Shown here one piece after another: positions 33,564 to 45,488 of a stretch of DNA of 64,000 nt. Both the position numbers and the translations under genes were made by a program. Under the pieces are notes generated by a model. It saw only the letters and a list, made by a program, of their open reading frames with translations. It was not told the DNA's origin and searched no databases. The DNA is taken from the NCBI RefSeq assembly GCF_056746865.1, contig NZ_CM163382.1; one strand, 5' to 3'. Within the stretch, counting starts at the first letter, position 1. The number at the start of each line of letters is the position of its first letter.

Positions 33564-33653
33564 TGGCGGAGAGAGGGGGATTTGAACCCCCGGTAGAGTT
33601 GCCCCTACTCCGGTTTTCGAGACCGGTCCGTTCAGCCGCTCCGGCATCTCTCC
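33564..33653 (-). tRNA. serU: tRNA-Ser (serU-type)
   Basis: Minus-strand GGAGAGATGCCGGAGCGGCTGAACGGACCGGTCTCGAAAACCGG...CTCTCCGCCA with long variable arm, 90 nt. Confidence 0.92.
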
Positions 33654-34644: not shown

Positions 34645-34720
34645 TCCTCTGTAGTTCAGTCGGTAGAACGGCGGACTGTTAATCCGTATGTCACTGGTTC
34701 GAGTCCAGTCAGAGGAGCCA
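34645..34720 (+). tRNA. asnT: tRNA-Asn (asnT)
   Basis: 76-nt TCCTCTGTAGTTCAGTCGGTAGAACGGCGGACTGTTAATCCG...GAGGAGCCA. Confidence 0.95.
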
Positions 34721-34797
34721 GATTCAAGTTTTCATGCTTATCTGTACGTTTATATTTGTTTACGATTCAGTAAGTTAGCGTGAAAATCCTTGCCGGT

Positions 34798-34869
34798 GCG
34801 TATCTGGTTTTATCTCCGCATCGGGATAATTTGGTGGTCAGATCTGGGGTCAGTTTGGTTCGATTCTGG
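34798..34869 (+). repeat. Short direct repeats (GTATCTGG / AGATCTGG / CGATTCTGG) between asnT and the integrase start; candidate integrase arm-type sites
   Basis: Three related octamers at about 34800, 34840 and 34861, plus two GGTCAG copies. Confidence 0.35.
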
Positions 34870-34882
34870 AGTGACCCCCAAA

Positions 34883-36151
34883 ATGTCTTTAAACGATTCT
34901 AAAATCCGCAAGTTAAAATCTTCTTCCCGTCCGGTAAAACTCTCCGACTCTCACGGTCTGTATCTGCTCGTCAATCCGGGCGGTTCGCGCATCTGGTATC
35001 TCAAATATCGTTTCAACGGAAAAGAATCCAGAGTCAGTCTTGGCGCATACCCGCTGGTCTCACTGGCAGAAGCCAGGCAACAGCGCGACGGTATCCGCAA
35101 GTTACTGGCGCAGAATATCAACCCGGCGCAGCAGCGCATGGCAGAGAAAGCCGCCTGCTCCCCTGAAAAGTGCTTTAAAGCGGTGGCGGTGGCGCTGGCC
35201 TGGCACAAAACCAACAAAAAATGGTCGGCTGATTATGCCGCCCGTATTCTCGCCAGTATGGAAAACCATATCTTCCCGGCGGTTGGTCATTTGCCCGTTG
35301 CCAAACTTAAAACGCAGGATTTCACTGCCCTGCTGAGGGTTATTGAGGATAAGGGCTTTCTGGAAGTCGCGTCCCGCACGCGGCAGCAACTCAGCAACAT
35401 CATGCGCTATGCCGTATAGCAGGGGCTTACCGAAAGCAATCCGGCGCAGCATCTGGATGGCGTTGTCTCCTCCCCCGTAAAGAATCACTACCCCGCGTTA
35501 CCGCTGGAGCGGTTGTCCGAACTGCTTGGCCGCATCGGTGACTATCAGCAGGGCCGGGAGTTAACCCGGCTGGCGGAGGTGCTGACACTGCACCTGTTCA
35601 TCCGTTCCAGCGAACTGCGTTTCGCCCGCTGGAGCGAGATCGATTTCAGGCACAAAATCTGGACCATCCCCGCCACCCGCGAGGCCATCGACAAAGTTCG
35701 GTTTTCGGGGCGTGGCGCAAAAATGCGTACTCCGCATATCGTACCGCTCTCCCGCCAGGCGATTGCCCTTCTGAAACAGATACAGGAGCTTTCCGGCCAT
35801 CTGGATCTGGTGTTTCCCGGCGATCATAATCCGTACAAGCCAATGAGCGAAAACACAACCAACCGGGCGCTGCGCCTGATGGGGTATGACACGAAAACTG
35901 AAATCTGCGGGCATGGACTCAGGGCAATGGCCTGTAGCGCCCTGGTGGAGTCGGACCTGTGGTCACGCGATACGGTGGAGCGGCAAATGAGCCACCAGGA
36001 GCGCAACAGCGTGCGGGCGGCATATGTGCATAAAGCAGAGCATCTGGAGGCCAGAAAGGCCATGATGCAGTGGTGGTCGGATTATCTGGATGTGTGCCGC
36101 GAGGGGTATGTTGCGCCGTACATTTATGCCCGGCAGCATAAGGCAGCCTGA
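34883..36151 (+). pseudogene. P4-type tyrosine integrase at asnT, interrupted by a single in-frame TAG at 35417..35419
   Basis: ORFs 34790..35419 and 35513..36151 share one frame and are separated only by TAG; N-terminal SLNDSKIRKLK arm-binding-type domain; C-terminal catalytic region. Confidence 0.85.
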
Positions 36152-36186
36152 ATCAGAAATAGCGTAAATCATTAAAACCGGAAAAG

Positions 36187-36217
36187 CAGATCCTGATTGA
36201 CCGGGATCTGTTTTTTT
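36187..36217 (+). terminator. Rho-independent terminator after the integrase gene
   Basis: CAGATCC...GGGATCTG hairpin followed by TTTTTTT. Confidence 0.7.
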
Positions 36218-36320
36218 GTATTGAGAGGTATTGTCGCTGTTTTTGTTATTATTAATTGGGAAGCACCGAAAATTATTCCAGTAGAATATTTGCAGTCGAT
36301 TGCCTATTAATAAATGCATT

Positions 36321-36660
36321 ATTGATAGATAATTACCTTCTGTGATTTGCCTGCAAATCACAGAAGATGAAAACCTATCAATACGGGATATTTTCACGAA
36401 AATACAAATTAATACTCCAGAATATCTGCACCAGAATATCTCCTGACCCTATACTCTGAAACCTGTAAGAACTGCATCAGATATTCAGAAACCAGACAGA
36501 TATAAGCCTGAAATTATTTGGCGTCCAATGATTTCAGGCGAAACCTATCAATGCATCTGTTTTCAACAGGCAGCCACCTTCCGTGATTCACATGTTAATC
36601 ATGGAAGGTGAAAAGCTATCAATAATCGACATTTCCACGGAATTACCACTTAATACATCC
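36321..36660. repeat. Array of three related modules, each a hairpin (palindrome) followed by a conserved box GAAA(A)(C/G)CTATCAAT-N5-a(t/c)aTTT(t/c)CA(c/a); plus one inverted box copy
   Basis: Palindromes 36337..36366 (perfect 14-bp arms), 36506..36539, 36575..36610; CTATCAAT at 36375, 36545, 36616; inverted ATTGATAG at 36321; no ORF. Confidence 0.6.
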
Positions 36661-37461
36661 CCAAAAATGCGCCATAAAATACCGGACAATCTTTCCTGAT
36701 ACAGATTATCACTGCACCAGCTATACGGAGACAAAATAATCTGCACCCGTCCTGGATAATCTGCTATCTGCGCCAGCGTCCCGCCGCTCTACCTGTTCAG
36801 TGCTGCGCCAGTACCTGGCCCTTTAGTTTTTGGCCCTTTCAGGTCAGGCGCTGTTCCCCTTATCGCCCCCTTAACCTTTATGACCCTTTCCCTTTCTGGC
36901 GCAGCCAGTTTATTTGGAAATGCTCCATGACAGTCTGCACCAGACTGTATTTTCACCACAGGATAACAATCACAAAGTGCAAAAAATAACATGAAGCACC
37001 GAAGATTCTTAATTCATATGAAGCAGGTTATTATGCCAAAAACCGTCGCAGCATTTTTATAAAATCATGAGGCATCCTGAGACCATATAATATATGTCAC
37101 AGGATACGGAAAAACACAGAGAGAATTATTCAGATATAACCCTGTGCCAGAATTAATGTGATGCCCCGGTGAATTTACATTTTAAAATTTTCCCAGCCCT
37201 GTAGTATTGGTAAAAATGATTGAAACACCTGTTATTAACAGAGAGCATTTCGTGTGATTACAGGGGTAATCACTATAATATTCCGACAAACTATATTGGT
37301 TAAGCAGGAGAATCTGATCTGTTGATATTTATTCGTCATGCTGTAACGATATTTTCACAATATAAACCCGTTCGCCCCCTGCGCCAGATCCGGAACATAG
37401 GGTACGATAAATCGCTGTCGTTACGCAGTAACGTACTATTTTGCGACATTCATGAATTCAG

Positions 37462-38346
37462 TTATTCCTCCCTCCAGCGGTATCCATACACCTGTTTCAC
37501 CCAGCGACCGCGACCGTCGCCATGACCCAGATCCGTCGCCGTCAGCGCCAGGGATTCCTTTTCGCTGAATCCCTGCGCCAGATAATGGCGGATCGCATCC
37601 TGCGCCCAGGCATAGCGCAGGGAGTGAGGGGAAAATTCCCCCTTCAGCCCCACCTTAATGACCTGTTTGTGCCAGCTCTCCAGCGCCATTTTGAGATCAG
37701 GCTTGTCGATCAGCCTGCCATTGTGTCGATCCGCGACCAGTAAGGCCTTTTCCAGAGCCTTCCTGACTGCGCCAGTATCCAGAACTGTCGTATGGCGGGG
37801 ACGCCCACCTTTGGTGCCAAACACCACTTTCAGCCGGTTTTCCCCGCGCTCAATGGCTTTCAGCCACGTTTTCAGCGACAGTGAACTCTGTACCGCTTCC
37901 TGCGAGCGTAACCCCATCAGTCGCGCGATCTCCAGCGCCGCAGCCAGCCCCGCATCCTCAGCGCGGGCTTTCTCCATAACCTGCTGGTAATGTTCCGGCG
38001 TAATGGCGCGGCGCGTACCGTTGCGTGAAGCGCCCGACACTCCCAGCGCCTTATTGGTTAGGCGTGGATGCTCCACCACCTGCCTGCGTCCAGCCTGTCT
38101 CAGCACGGCCTGCAGTGCCGCCATGTCGTTTTGCAGCGTTCGTAAACCAATATCCTGCTCCAGCCGTTCCTCAATGTAGCATTCGATATGGCGAACCCTG
38201 ATCTGCTCCACCCGCTGGATCTGGATATTCAGCGCCCGTAAATGTTCACTGAACCGTTTTGTAATATGGATACGGTCATTCACTGTTTTAAAGCTGCCGC
38301 CCGCTTTCTTCGCCAGCGCCTTCATTTCACTGCTTAATTTACTCAT
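37462..38346 (-). CDS. Tyrosine-type site-specific recombinase / integrase-family protein (294 aa), second recombinase of the asnT islet
   Basis: C-terminal HSLRYAWA...DLGHGDGRGRWVKQVYGY resembles the H-x-x-R ... catalytic-Y region of tyrosine recombinases; AGGGGA Shine-Dalgarno upstream of ATG. Confidence 0.6.
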   Translation of the reverse strand: MSKLSSEMKALAKKAGGSFKTVNDRIHITKRFSEHLRALNIQIQRVEQIRVRHIECYIEERLEQDIGLRTLQNDMAALQAVLRQAGRRQVVEHPRLTNKALGVSGASRNGTRRAITPEHYQQVMEKARAEDAGLAAALEIARLMGLRSQEAVQSSLSLKTWLKAIERGENRLKVVFGTKGGRPRHTTVLDTGAVRKALEKALLVADRHNGRLIDKPDLKMALESWHKQVIKVGLKGEFSPHSLRYAWAQDAIRHYLAQGFSEKESLALTATDLGHGDGRGRWVKQVYGYRWREE

Positions 38347-38935
38347 GAATCCCCTGCAACATAAACAAACAGTCTCCGGCGTGTGCTGTTTGGCTGCGCC
38401 AGAACGATACCTTCACGCCGGAGTGGCTGGTTGTTGAGGTTTAGGGAGTTTCAGGCTGTACGCGGTACAGACTGCCTGACGAAGCAGGGGTGTCTCCGGA
38501 GCATCGTGCCCCCCCTCGGTATCGATCTTTTTCTCCTTTACTCTGAGCTGACAGCGGCCCCAAAGGGCATGTCAGACGGCGGAAATATGGCGCAGGCCGG
38601 GACTGGCGCGGCTTGCGGCGGTATGTTGTGCAGCGTCACTTTGCCCTGTCGCTGGCGCGACCAGAGTGACACCTCGTCTGGTGCAGAGGGTAAACGTTGC
38701 GTTTCTGGTGCAGGGTGACGGTCACGCGGCAGCAAAGCCTGCTGTCTTTGCAGGCCGCAGCCCGTCAATGTAAGGCGCGGGTTGTCAGCAGAAGATAAAA
38801 CCCGGCAAAGCCAGAGTGCCAGCCCGTAAAGCCGGGTAAGCATGGCTACGAAGAAGAGAAGTGGAGAAAAAATAAATGACCGACAAATCTTATGCGGGAT
38901 GGGAATTAAACTACGCCGCTTAACTGCGGGTAACG

Positions 38936-41900
38936 GTGACCTTCACCATGCCACAGGACGTTGCGGCAAACTTTACCCTCGAAAATAACGGCATTGCCAT
39001 CACCCAAGCCAATGGGGAAGCGCATGTCACGCTGAAAGGTAAAAAAGCGGGTACGCATACGGTTACCGCAACGCTGGGTAATAACAATACCAGTGATTCG
39101 CAGCCGGTAACGTTTGTGGCGGACAAAACCTCGGCTCAGGTTGTCCTGCAGATGTCAAAAGATGAGATCACAGGTAATGGCGTCGATAACGCAACGCTAA
39201 CTGCAACGGTTAAAGATCAGTTCGACAATGAGGTGAATAATCTTCCGGTAACATTCAGCTCAGCCTCTTCAGGACTCACCCTGACCCCGGGAGTAAGTAA
39301 TACCAATGAGTCTGGCATCGCGCAGGCCACTCTCGCAGGCGTTGCCTTTGGTGAGCAGACGGTCACTGCATCACTGGCTAATAATGGTGCCAGCGACAAC
39401 AAAACTGTGCATTTTATTGGCGACACAGCAGCGGCAAAAATTATCGAGTTGACGCCTGTCCCAGACAGCATAATCGCCGGTACCCCGCAGAACAGCTCCG
39501 GCAGCGTCATCACCGCCACAGTCGTTGATAATAATGGCTTTCCGGTGAAAGGTGTGACTGTGAACTTCACCAGCAGAACAAACTCTGCCGAAATGACGAA
39601 TGGCGGCCAAGCCGTAACGAACGAACAGGGTAAGGCTACCGTCACTTATACCAATACCCGCTCCTCGATAGAATCAGGAGCGAGACCGCATACCGTTGAG
39701 GCCAGTCTGGAAAATGGTAGCTCCACGCTTAGCACATCAATTAATGTCAACGCTGATGCGTCTACGGCACATCTCACCTTGCTACAGGCACTTTTTGATA
39801 CAGTCTCCGCAGGCGACACTACCAATCTGTATATTGAGGTGAAGGATAATTACGGCAACGGTGTACCCCAGCAGGAGGTAACCCTCAGAGTATCACCAAG
39901 TGAAGGCGTGACCCCCAGTAATAACGCTATATATACTACCAACCACGACGGCAATTTTTACGCAAGCTTTACCGCTACAAAAGCCGGGGTTTATCAAGTG
40001 ACGGCAACCCTCGAAAATGGCGATTCGATGCAACAAACAGTGACCTATGTGCCGAACGTAGCGAATGCTGAAATCACGCTGGCAGCCTCGAAGGATCCGG
40101 TGATTGCCGACAATAACGATATCACGACACTAACAGCAACAGTCGCTGATACAGAGGGCAATGCGATAGCCAACACTGAGGTAACATTTACTCTGCCGGA
40201 AGATGTGAGGGCGAACTTCACGCTGAGCGATGGCGGTAAAGCGGTTACTGATGCCGATGGCAAAGCGAAAGTCACGCTGAAAGGTACAAAAGCAGGCGCT
40301 CATACTGTTACAGCATCGATGGCTGGCGGTAAGAGTGAGCAGTTGGTGGTGAACTTTATTGCGGATACACTCACTGCGCAGGTTAATCTTAACGTTACCG
40401 AGGACAATTTTATCGCTAATAACGTCGGGATGACCAGGCTGCAGGCAACAGTGACTGATGGAAACGGCAACCCGTTAGCCAATGAGGCGGTGACATTCAC
40501 GCTACCGGCAGATGTGAGCGCAAGCTTTACTCTCGGACAAGGCGGTTCCGCCATTACTGATATCAACGGCAAGGCTGAAGTTACACTGAGCGGTACAAAA
40601 TCCGGCACCTACCCCGTGACAGTTAGCGTGAACAATTATGGTGTCAGTGATACGAAACAGGTGACTTTGATTGCCGATGCTGGTACCGCAAAACTAGCCT
40701 CATTAACCTCTGTATACTCTTTCGTCGTCAGCACGACCGAGGGCGCGACCATGACTGCAAGCGTCACTGACGCTAACGGCAACCCGGTAGAAGGCATAAA
40801 AGTTAATTTCCGCGGAACCTCCGTCACGCTAAGCAGCACCAGCGTTGAAACGGATGATCGGGGTTTCGCTGAAATTCTTGTGACAAGCACCGAGGTCGGA
40901 CTGAAAACAGTTTCAGCCTCTCTGGCAGATAAACCTACTGAAGTCATCTCGCGATTACTGAATGCAAAAGCAGATATTAATTCTGCAACGATTACCAGTC
41001 TGGAGATACCTGAAGGTCAGGTCATGGTCGCACAAGACGTAGCAGTTAAAGCTCACGTCAACGACCAGTTTGGCAATCCGATTCTTAATGAATCTGTAAC
41101 ATTCAGTGCAGAGCCACCAGAGCACATGACCATCAGCCAAAATATTGTCTCTACTGATACGCATGGTATAGCCGAGGTCACTATGACGCCCGAAAGAAAC
41201 GGTTCGTATATGGTGAAAGCATCCCTGGCGAATGGATCCTCTTATGAGAAGGATCTGGTGGTAATCGATTAAAAACTGACACTCTCGGCGTCCAGCCCGC
41301 TTATCGGTGTCAATTCCCCAACAGGTGCAACTCTGACGGCAACGCTAACTTCTGCAAATGGCACTCCAGTGGAGGGTCAGGTCATCAACTTTAGCGTAAC
41401 GCCAGAAGGTGCGACGTTAAGTGGCGGAAAAGTGGGAACCAACTCTTCAGGTCAGGCTCCAGTCGTTCTGACCAGCAATAAAGTCGGTACATATACGGTG
41501 ACTGCATCGTTCCATAACGGCGTAACAATACAGACACAGACAACCGTGAAAGTCACTGGCAACTCAAGCACCGCCCATGTTGCTAGCTTTATCGCTGATC
41601 CATCGACTATCGCCGCCACCAACAGTGATTTAAGTACCTTAAAGGCAACGGTTGAGGATGGCAGTGGTAACCTGATCGAAGGTCTCACTGTGTACTTCGC
41701 CTTAAAAAGCGGCTCTGCCACATTAACGTCATTAACAGCGGTGACAGATCAAAACGGAATCGCGACAACAAGCGTGAGAGGAGCGATAACGGGGAGCGTC
41801 ACGGTAAGCGCAGTCACGACCGCTGGTGGAATGCAAACAGTAGATATAACGCTGGTGGCAGGCCCGGCAGACGCCTCAAAGTCAGTCCTTAAGAACAATC

Positions 41901-42000
41901 GGTCATCATTGAAAGGAGACTTTACCGATAGTGCTGAGCTACATCTTGTTCTGCACGATATATCAGGCAATCCGATCAAAGTTTCTGAAGGGCTGGAATT
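38936..42000 (+). repeat. Tandem coding repeats of about 300 nt (bacterial Ig-like domains) within the yeeJ remnant
   Basis: Recurrent nucleotide and protein motifs (GTCACGCTGAAAGGTA..., TVTATL/TVTASM) at roughly 100-aa spacing. Confidence 0.6.
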
Positions 42001-42775
42001 TGTGCAATCAGGTACTAACGTGCCCTATATGAAAATTAGCGCAATTGATTACAGTCAAAATATCAACGGTGATTACAAAGCCACCATTACAGGCGGCGGA
42101 GAGGGTATCGCAACGCTGATCCCTGTATTGAATGGTGTTCATCAAGCTGGTCTGAGTACCACAATACAATTCACTCGCGCAGAAGACAAAATAATGAGCG
42201 GTACAGTATCAGTCAATGGTACTGACCTACCGACAACTACATTCCCTTCGCAGGGGTTCACCGGGGCGTATTATCAGTTGAATAATGACAACTTTGCCCC
42301 AGGAAAAACGGCGGCTGATTATGAGTTTTCAAGCTCTGCCTCCTGGGTCGATGTTGATGCTACCGGTAAAGTGACATTTAAAAATGTCGGCAGCAATTGG
42401 GAAAGGATTACGGCGACGCCAAAATCAGGAGGCCCTAGCTATGTATACGAAATCCGTGTGAAGAGTTGGTGGGTGAACTCCGGCGATGCTTTCATGATAT
42501 ACAGCCTTGCTGAAAATTTTTGCAGTAGCAATGGCTACACACTTCCCCGTGCAGACCATTTAAACCATAGTCGTTCCCGAGGCATCGGGTCACTGTACAG
42601 TGAATGGGGAGATATGGGGCATTACACGACTGAAGCTGGTTTTCAATCAAATATGTATTGGTCATCTAGTCCCGCAAACTCAAGCGAACAATACGTAGTT
42701 TCCCTGGCAACAGGTGATCAAAGCGTATTTGAAAAGCTTGGGTTTGCTTATGCGACATGTGATAAAAACCTGTGA
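38936..42775 (+). pseudogene. yeeJ: 3' portion of an inverse-autotransporter adhesin gene (yeeJ-like; Big_1 Ig-like repeats and C-terminal lectin-like domain), 5' half absent, with in-frame TAA at 41270..41272
   Basis: ORFs 38936..41272 and 41369..42775 share one frame, separated by one TAA; repeated VTFTLP...FTL...G.A.VTLKG.KAG.HTVTA units; homology begins abruptly at about 38924 with no signal peptide or beta-barrel region. Confidence 0.8.
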
Positions 42776-43191: not shown

Positions 43192-43202
43192 TGGATTTGC
43201 CC

Positions 43203-44108
43203 CTATATTTCCAGACACCTGTTATCACTTAACCCATTACTGGCCCGCTGCCGTAGATATTCCCGTGGCGAGCGATAACCCAGTGCACTATGCGGATGCC
43301 ATTCGTTATAATGCTCGAACGCCTCTGCAAGGTTCTTTGCTGCCGTTAACCCGTCTGGTTTAGGCATGATACTGATGTAGTCACGCTTTATCGTTTTCAC
43401 GAAGCTCTCTGCTATGCCGTTACTCTCCGGACTCCGCACCGCCGTGTTCTTCGGTTCAAGCCCCAACATCCGGGCAAACTGCCGTGTTTCATTAGCCCGG
43501 TAGCATGAACCATTATCCGTCAGCCACTCTACTGGAGACGCCGGAAGCTCGTTGCCGAAGCGGCGTTCCACCGCTCCCAGCATTACGTCCTGTACTGTTT
43601 CACTGTCGAAGCCGCCCGTAGTGACTGCCCAGTGCAGTGCCTCACGGTCACAGCAGTCCAGCGCGAACGTGACTCGCAGTTTTTCTCCGTTATCACAGCG
43701 GAACTCGAACCCGTCAGAGCACCATCGTTGATTGCTTTCTTTCACGGCCACTTTGCCAGTATGTGCCCGTTTCGATGGCGGTACAGCGGTTTTTCGCTCA
43801 AGCAACAGCGCATTCTGGCGCATGATCCGGTAAACACGTTTGGCATTGATCGCAGGCATACCATCAAGTTCGGCCTGTCTGCGAAGCAGCGCCCATACCC
43901 GACGATAACCATACGTGGGCAGCTCTCCGATAACATGGTGTATACGGAGAAGCACATCCGTATCATCTGAGTGACGGCTGCGGCGACCATCTTTCCAGTC
44001 ATCGGTTCGTCTGAGAATGACGTGCAACTGCGCACGCGACACCCGGAGACAACGGCTGACTAAGCTTACTCCCCATCCCCGGGCAATAAGGGCGCGTGCG
44101 CTATCCAC
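43203..44108 (-). CDS. insD: IS2 transposase OrfB (InsD)
   Basis: 301-aa ORF with DDE-transposase sequence. Confidence 0.93.
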
Positions 44109-44431
44109 TTTTTTGCACGCCCGTATTCAACGGCTTCTTTAAGGAGTTCATTTTCCATCGTTTTTTTGCCGAGCAGGCGCTGGAGTTCTTTAATCTGCTT
44201 CATGGCAGCAGCAAGTTCAGAGGCAGGAACGACCTGCTCTCCTGCGGCCACAGCAGTAAGACTTCCCTCCTGGTATTGCTTGCGCCAGAGAAATAACTGG
44301 CTGGCTGCCACACCGTGTTGCCGGGCAACAAGGGAGACCGTCATTCCCGGTTCAAAACTCTGCTGAACAATAGCGATCTTTTCCTGTGTAGTACGCCGTC
44401 TGCGTTTCTCCGGTCCTAAGACATCAATCAT
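44066..44431 (-). CDS. insC: IS2 OrfA (InsC)
   Basis: 121-aa product from [18 protein letters not shown]; overlaps insD for -1 frameshifting. Confidence 0.93.
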
Positions 44432-44522
44432 CTGCTCTCCAATGACTAGTCTAAAAACTAGTATTAAGACTATCACTTATTTAAGTGATATTGGTTGTCT
44501 GGAGATTCAGGGGGCCAGTCTA

Positions 44523-45488
44523 ATTATAGGCACTTGCCATATGTAATATTGAGGTGTCAGGAGTTATTGCGATATAAGCATCTTTTATGATTGCTGCTGA
44601 ACGTTTAATCGAGGGTGATAAGGATAAACGGTAGACATTATTATAACAATCCACTAATACCCTGGCTTTATCTTCCCCTTTTGGTCCATGAACGATCACT
44701 ATTGGTATATCTGTTTCACTTTGAATTTTTGCTATTAGATTTTCTGCAATCGATAATGAAAATGTACGTTCCTGCGAGCTACCTTCTAAATTAAGCGCAA
44801 TGTAAGATCCTAACGATCGCATTTCCTCGCGCACCTCATCGAGTACATCCTCACTTAGTGGCAATTCATATATTGGCCTGACTGCTGGAAAACCCGCCTC
44901 ACGCATCATAAATGCCCATGTCATGGGTACAGGAGCCCGGAGATTCTGATCCATCCGGGACGCGTTCTTGCACAAAGGGGAGTAGCACTTCATGGTTAAA
45001 CCAACAACCTGAAAATTCGTTTTTGCTTTTAACTGACTGATAAATATCATCGTTTTCAGGTTCTTTTTACGCATCGCCTCTATACAAAGATCCGGCGTAC
45101 CGTATTGCTGTGTTATGTTCTTTGCTAAATCTTTTATTTCTTTTAATGTTGCGTGATCCTGCATAGTCATTGTGACTAATGTTAATTTAGTCTTTTCAAG
45201 TTTAAGTGCATTAAACACTTCTAAATTAATTGTCGACGTAACAATTAAAAGATGCTTAATTTTATGCAATTCAAGCGCCCGAATAACAGGAAAGATGGCC
45301 ATAGCATCGCCAATCTGGTCGGGAATATGGATAACAACAAACTCTGTTTTTTCAATATTAAAATTATAAGCTTTATAATCGTAGTAACTAAATGCAATAC
45401 GTCTCAACAATGATGCTAAAAACATACCTAACCTCGCCTCCCTACTGGTTATAATGCATTGCAGTCTATCAGACTCATCATGGCGCAA
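44523..45488 (-). pseudogene. yeeL: yeeL, uncharacterised putative transferase, 3' end disrupted by IS2
   Basis: 322-aa ORF whose apparent stop codon lies inside the IS2 terminus. Confidence 0.7.

Follow-up and report, generated by a model that had tools for sequence, protein, structure and literature searches.

The window analyzed here, a stretch of 64,000 nucleotides of an E. coli chromosome, carries in order serU, mtfA, asnT, an islet, the remains of yeeJ (yeeJ'), a copy of IS2, shiA, amn, yeeN, asnW, yeeO, asnU, cbl, nac, asnV, and ldtA. The serU gene (33564..33653, minus strand) encodes a tRNA-Ser(CGA), its anticodon being read as cga by ARAGORN, and is where the classical amber suppressor supD maps. 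The asnT gene (34645..34720, plus strand) encodes a tRNA-Asn(GTT) whose last 16 nt (34705-34720, CCAGTCAGAGGAGCCA) form the att core. It is followed by the 4.1-kb islet (34726..38834), which is absent from K-12 and was delimited by blastn comparisons with K-12, EC6563, OW1E2, and ATCC 8739. A P4-type tyrosine integrase pseudogene of 422 sense codons and a stop, interrupted at codon 179, occupies positions 34883..36151 (plus strand) and starts 162 nt downstream of asnT.

A second recombinase gene of the islet (37462..38346, minus strand), annotated by RefSeq as an "integrase domain-containing protein", is intact and encodes 294 aa with the Phage_int_SAM_2 and Integrase_1 domains. Its homologue is frameshifted in the asnW islands of N3, ST2747, NRZ14408, and 19KM1831 and truncated in KFu022. 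An EFASI RNA motif (Rfam RF02957; 38401..38530, minus strand), scoring 95.7 bits against a gathering score of 51.2, lies directly upstream of this gene on the same strand. The ORF listing and the RefSeq annotation of the islet, in which small ORFs are partly covered, contained the integrase and this Integrase_1-family gene only, and no AlpA/Xis-like ORF was found in them. The AT-rich spacer on the 3' side of the integrase contains two related modules (36309-36394 and 36575-36630), each consisting of one long hairpin, exemplified by CTTCTGTGATTTGC / GCAAATCACAGAAG, and flanked by GAAAA(C/G)CTATCAATA-like sequence. No Rfam family matched either module, and they could be candidate protein-binding sites or a small RNA.

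The right islet junction is formed by a 98-nt remnant of the 5' end of yeeJ (38835..38932, plus strand), with the ATG at 38843. The yeeJ gene as a whole (38835-42775, plus strand) is wrecked: this remnant is joined to the rest across an internal deletion of ~3.1 kb at a 7-nt microhomology (38926-38932), and the remainder in the window is further broken into ORFs of 778 and 468 aa. The IS2 copy (~43202-44535, minus strand; TnpB of 301 aa at 43203-44108, TnpA at 44066-44476) was not found in the closest complete genomes and appears to disrupt the 3' end of a glycosyltransferase family 9 gene adjoining yeeJ.

The integrase reads in a single frame from an ATG at 34883 to a TGA at 36149-36151, and its sole internal stop is the TAG at 35417-35419, within the peptide ...IMRYAV*QGLTESNPAQ.... 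Intact integrases of 420 aa aligned to both halves with 76-99% identity and no gap around the stop, showing that this is a real interrupted gene rather than a chance pair of ORFs. When conceptually repaired, the protein contained the domains Arm-DNA-bind_3 (PF13356, residues 3-87, E 4e-24), Phage_int_M (PF22022, residues 102-193, E 3e-25), and Phage_integrase (PF00589, residues 234-386, E 2e-16), and it shared 49.3% amino acid identity with phage P4 Int (NC_001609) over 98% coverage (E 3e-129). R241, K280, H344, R347, H371, and Y381 occupy invariant columns among 17 family members, all downstream of the stop; the catalytic roles of the R, K, H-x-x-R, and H residues and of the Tyr nucleophile were assigned by motif, not by structure. 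The gene found in EC6563 is 100% identical and is labeled in RefSeq "tyrosine-type recombinase/integrase, pseudo, internal stop". Thus, the initial annotation, which described a P4-type integrase split by a single in-frame amber codon through a point nonsense mutation, was corroborated by the coordinates, the frame, the local peptide, the RefSeq label, and the homology to P4 Int (49% identity, 98% coverage). With the domains, the P4 Int homology, and the catalytic residues all present and the reading frame interrupted, the integrase at 34883-36151 is a pseudogene of the P4-type family and not a working member of it.

Codon 179 lies within the central (core-binding) domain, so that the predicted product lacks the entire catalytic domain: the change of CAG to TAG at this codon would end translation at residue 178, with the arm-binding domain retained and the core-binding domain cut short. 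A restart at the in-frame TTG at 35513, yielding a fragment with the catalytic domain only, is conceivable in principle but was set aside, as the GGAG preceding it is just 3 nt upstream and both DNA-binding domains would be absent. The amber codon is the only frame-breaking lesion of the window copy, which carries two further changes. The first is an in-frame 6-bp tandem duplication, GCGGTG (35180..35185, plus strand), that adds Ala-Val and that, among the 34 alleles compared, was found only in the window, in EC6563, and on one metagenome contig (L031). The second is GAG (Glu232) at 35576..35578 (plus strand), a V232E substitution at a nearly invariant position, where ≥90% of the family alignment and every CAG (intact-type) allele compared have Val.

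The frequency of the amber allele was determined with 55-nt queries centered on the variable base, each 28-nt megablast seed having to include that base. The TAG allele, read together with the preceding codon as GTA TAG, was found in 273 of 5,426 complete E. coli genomes, that is, 5%, in 359 copies, with two copies in 86 of the genomes. About 456 complete genomes carry the integrase family at 90% identity or more, and TAG is therefore the majority allele among carriers. In all, the family is represented at ~690 places in the 5,426 genomes. When metagenome contigs were scanned with the codon left open, GTA TAG was read on 14 of 22 and GTT CAG on the other eight (8/22). A sequencing error at the stop was the observation that the initial annotation had named as able to overturn its interpretation. 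That the TAG is a sequencing or assembly error in a truly intact gene is excluded by its presence in 273 independently assembled complete genomes and 14 metagenome contigs, and an internal stop is flagged in every RefSeq record inspected.

The ancestral state of the codon was examined in intact relatives. Intact alleles with 94-96% identity (Z142-6 at asnU and 19KM1831 at asnW) read GTT CAG, as did all of the 13 close alleles without the stop, and residue 179 in 16 more distant family members was mostly Gln, the exceptions being His (the most distant), Pro (one), and Trp (one). The stop thus stands where intact homologues have a sense codon. Since GTT CAG is the reading of the close intact alleles and Gln prevails in that column across the family, these comparisons indicate that the ancestral codon was CAG (Gln), as the initial annotation had guessed, and that it was turned into TAG by a C-to-T change.

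The nonsense change was always paired with an adjacent synonymous change at 35416-35417 (GTT CAG to GTA TAG, or TC to AT). The Val178 codon (35414..35416, plus strand), which serves as a synonymous marker, was GTA in every TAG and TGG copy and GTT in every CAG copy. No exact GTA CAG match was present in the 5,426 complete E. coli genomes, and GTA CAG and GTT TAG were both absent from the 22 metagenome contigs; one near-match TAG hit that was inspected, in ES9, differed elsewhere, by A177T. As these single-step intermediates were not found, the TC-to-AT change may have been one event, a single tandem double substitution.

The amber allele was found in more than one genetic background. ATCC 8739 carries it both at asnT and at asnV, and its two integrase copies are 99.2% identical to each other. 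In the adjoining island segment, identity falls to 85%, a pattern indicative of gene conversion or mosaicism and not of a recent duplication of the whole island. The copies of the window, of OW1E2, and both copies of ATCC 8739 belong to one haplotype (H-I), in which alone Glu232 was seen, and the copy of WCHEC020031 belongs to another (H-II) that differs from H-I by ~20 substitutions. A recombinant TAG copy on one contig (L022) carries, at 35577-35974, sequence belonging to a third allele family, a mosaic that shows recombination directly. The TAG codon is thus present on at least three haplotypes and at two asn tRNA loci, asnT and asnV; the integrase family itself occupies asnT, asnU, asnV, and asnW.

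The proposal that the inactivation was recent found no support: the allele is present in 5% of genomes, at two tRNA loci, and on at least three haplotypes, and a TGG derivative of it has already arisen. Judged by this distribution, the mutation appears old relative to strain divergence. We infer that TAG arose once, on a GTA-marked allele, that its spread would have involved vertical inheritance, homologous recombination among strains, and gene conversion linking the island copies at asnT and asnV, and that it would have been drifting neutrally since. A sister allele family at asnW (L007, L008, and L009) has kept CAG at codon 179 and carries a frameshift due to a 1-bp deletion at a position equivalent to ~35323 of the window. 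Three out of four sampled genomes have this frameshift, by which the integrase family was inactivated a second time, independently of the amber codon.

In a large protein database, the nearest intact protein (P0001) has Trp at the position of the stop and is 99% identical. It was read on 24 contigs, including two NCBI draft assemblies and several metagenome contigs, and its DNA reads GTA TGG, the GTA marker being kept. This allele had no match among complete E. coli genomes and was found only in draft assemblies and metagenomes. It is only 3 nt apart from the H-II TAG copy of WCHEC020031, one of the three differences being the A-to-G in codon 179. Because TAG is present on both sides of the split between H-I and H-II and TGG is nested within H-II, the most parsimonious order is CAG to TAG to TGG, and TGG is an apparent same-codon reversion that reopened the frame in one lineage. 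Recombination could blur this order.

The reverse polarity would make TGG (Trp) the immediate ancestor of TAG, through a G-to-A change at 35418, and P0001 the surviving intact parent. A GTA TGG allele does exist, one step from TAG and with the GTA marker in common. This polarity is nevertheless improbable, since TGG nests in H-II, 3 nt from the TAG copy of WCHEC020031, while TAG is also present on H-I, ~20 substitutions away; since a path from CAG to TGG takes two steps and passes through sense codons only by way of CGG; since Q, H, or P occupies position 179 in all other family members examined; and since TGG is present in no complete genome. With TGG taken as derived from TAG, the gene might be seen as a reversible evolutionary switch, in which a pseudogene with an open frame persisted and reached two tRNA loci until TGG (Trp179) resurrected a selected, active integrase (P0001); we regard this as a rather unlikely scenario.

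The Trp allele adjoins a second island integrated in tandem at asnT. A link between the Trp reversion and the gain of this upstream island was ruled out by KFu022, in which a comparable tandem island lies upstream of a TAG copy. Other mobile elements were observed at asnT upstream of dead or Trp-reverted integrases (positions 1-20340 of L042, the KFu022 contig, and 1-9840 of L040 and L041). One of these elements carries a MobQ relaxase, PilV shufflon pilus genes, and a type III restriction-modification system, and another carries AlpA, DUF6387, H-NS, and CoiA_N genes. Each of them terminates, immediately ahead of the old integrase, in a 24-nt copy of the asnT 3' end, and these terminal repeats indicate tandem accretion at a still-active attB.

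The substitution pattern of the broken gene was then compared with that of functional alleles. Mutations private to single TAG copies comprised seven nonsynonymous and three synonymous changes (n = 10, a small sample). This ratio fits neutrality (p = 0.43) and differs from the 17:53 ratio of functional alleles (p = 0.003), and the private mutations touch the family-invariant residues L53, A177, and H202. Together with the 6-bp duplication, the 7:3 ratio of this small sample shows that constraint was relaxed after the lesion. The H-I and H-II haplotypes differ by 14 synonymous and seven nonsynonymous changes, corresponding to a dN/dS of 0.15 that departs from neutrality (p = 3.5e-5), including in the part 3' of the stop. 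Taken alone, this value would suggest continuing selection on the full-length protein. However, ongoing selection as its main reading was overruled by the mosaic TAG copies and the neutral-looking private mutations. The H-I/H-II differences are attributed instead to standing variation that was probably imported from functional alleles by recombination, since mosaicism is directly visible in L022, where it was seen by inspection and not by a formal test.

The ORF is otherwise open in all of the 21 TAG copies compared, and this open remainder may still permit expression through readthrough or suppression. The initial annotation had proposed that the gene could be expressed in an amber-suppressor background, and no evidence for such a background was obtained. 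The only classical amber-suppressor locus in the window, serU, has the wild-type CGA anticodon. A query for supE (glnV CUA), supF (tyrT CUA), and supD matched 160 complete genomes; among the matches listed (60 of 160), all were supE and all came from K-12-type laboratory or derived strains, and the overlap with the 273 TAG carriers was judged from these 60 of 160. The K-12-type locus that was inspected has no islet at asnT. The Gln inserted by supE is the exact ancestral residue 179 and would restore it.

It is very unlikely that the gene was merely down-tuned, with full-length integrase being produced by readthrough of UAG (followed by C) or by a natural suppressor and with selection acting on the whole ORF. 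The allele is common, its ORF is otherwise open in 21 of 21 copies, and the dN/dS of 0.15 between TAG haplotypes extends 3' of the stop, all as expected if full-length protein were still made. However, the visible mosaicism with functional alleles accounts for the low dN/dS, the private mutations are seven nonsynonymous to three synonymous with some at invariant residues, and the window copy also carries a two-codon insertion and V232E. In addition, serU is wild type, the suppressor genomes among the matches listed (60 of 160) are all K-12-type, and the window offers no attR for any integrase to act on.

A role for the 178-aa N-terminal fragment itself, which would bind arm sites and hinder related integrases (HPI, pks, and incoming islands) at asn tRNA genes, is likewise very unlikely. 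Such a product could be argued from the frequency of the allele and its persistence at two loci, from its intact N-terminal domain, and from the new islands that keep integrating at asnT beside it. On the other hand, six of the ten private mutations and both lineage-specific N-terminal changes (S14Y and D22G) fall in this fragment and are mostly nonsynonymous, and islands integrate upstream of TAG copies regardless, so that there is no sign of exclusion. These results favor a dead gene, whose protein product would have no remaining activity.

The islet lacks more than a working integrase. Compared with K-12, positions 34726-38834 stand in place of the ~300-nt spacer between asnT and yeeJ, and compared with OW1E2 and ATCC 8739, the islet is the left 4.1 kb of a larger asn-tRNA island that carries an RHS element. 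Intact islands end in the 16-nt repeat of the asnT 3' end, CCAGTCAGAGGAGCCA, and this distal repeat (attR) was kept in EC6563, in both ATCC 8739 islands, in Z142-6, and on one Trp-allele contig. In the window, the integrase lies directly downstream of the tRNA gene (attL), whereas a distal attR is missing: searches with 16-nt and 25-nt cores, allowing up to 3 mismatches, found copies only in the four asn tRNA genes, and no asn-tRNA repeat was found between asnT and the right islet junction. The window has lost the rest of the island, the RHS cargo, attR, and the ancestral spacer between asnT and yeeJ, the deletion ending 8 nt short of the yeeJ start codon. At asnW, asnU, and asnV, the 64-kb window contained no further asn-type integrase.

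As attR is missing, the 4.1-kb remnant is unable to excise even with an integrase supplied in trans. The earlier statement that the islet is immobilized therefore holds, and does so for three independent reasons, attR and most of the island having been deleted in the window. Immobilization is over-determined, a point that had been overlooked when it was ascribed to the amber codon.

The window integrase can be compared with several known systems. It shares with phage P4 Int and P4-like island integrases the three-domain architecture and a location just past a tRNA gene, the 3' end of which serves as the att core. The target of phage P4 is leuX, whereas that of the window integrase is an asn tRNA gene, and the window integrase is interrupted by an amber codon. 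The integrase of the Y. enterocolitica biotype 1B HPI reportedly carries a premature stop, with one att repeat lost and the island stabilized, according to work by Bach, Buchrieser, Carniel, Rakin, and colleagues in the late 1990s. The likeness to that reported case is that the integrase of an asn-tRNA island was hit by a point nonsense mutation and that an att repeat was lost as well; the species, the island, and the integrase lineage differ.

In E. coli, the HPI at asnT has been described as an immobile, truncated island from which the right repeat has been deleted (PMC8209727). It resembles the islet in being linked to asnT, in having a P4-like integrase, and in being stabilized by the loss of attR; it differs in its integrase lineage and in its cargo, which is yersiniabactin in the HPI and of the RHS type here, and in the window the integrase is broken too. 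The asnT-linked integrases that we take to be those of the HPI share only ~74% DNA identity with the window integrase. In Enterobacter hormaechei, EhGI1 contains a truncated intB2, a P4-like asn-tRNA integrase, among islands arrayed in tandem at a single asn tRNA gene (PMC2801613). EhGI1 retains its direct repeats and is still excised, presumably through the intact integrase of its neighbor (PMC2801613). The truncated asn-tRNA integrase is common to both systems, and comparable tandem arrays are present upstream of TAG and TGG copies; unlike EhGI1, the window islet has no attR and no neighboring asn-type integrase within 64 kb. Finally, the P4-type integrases of the pks (colibactin) islands at asnW, asnU, and asnV can insert at any of the asn tRNA genes, these being identical, and produce direct repeats of 17 bp (PMC8209727), and the pks integrative module was reported to be conserved and intact (PMC8209727). 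In contrast, the window integrase family is decaying, by the amber codon at asnT and asnV and by the frameshift at asnW. The LF82 copy, presumably that of a pks island, has ~83% DNA identity to the window integrase.

Taken together, these results make it very probable that this P4-type integrase gene is dead and belongs to an asn-tRNA genomic island that has degraded. A deletion later than the nonsense mutation would then have removed the RHS cargo, the attR repeat, and the original asnT-yeeJ spacer from the window. This is ordinary integrase decay, the usual fate of the integrases of tRNA-linked islands. Automatic annotation has already marked the pseudogene in hundreds of public genomes, and our literature search returned no paper describing this asnT amber integrase pseudogene. 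The case is mildly notable in that one nonsense allele appears to have spread across loci and haplotypes by recombination, with an apparent reversion to Trp in one lineage.

Current understanding is left unchanged by these findings. For annotation, they mean that what remains of the island at asnT is fixed and non-mobile and that its integrase is a pseudogene, in line with RefSeq. They also illustrate the stepwise domestication of tRNA-linked islands, with a nonsense knockout, the copying of the allele between paralogous islands and strains, and the loss of attR and cargo, during which asnT keeps accepting new elements upstream. The TGG derivative suggests that such pseudogenes can regain an open frame.
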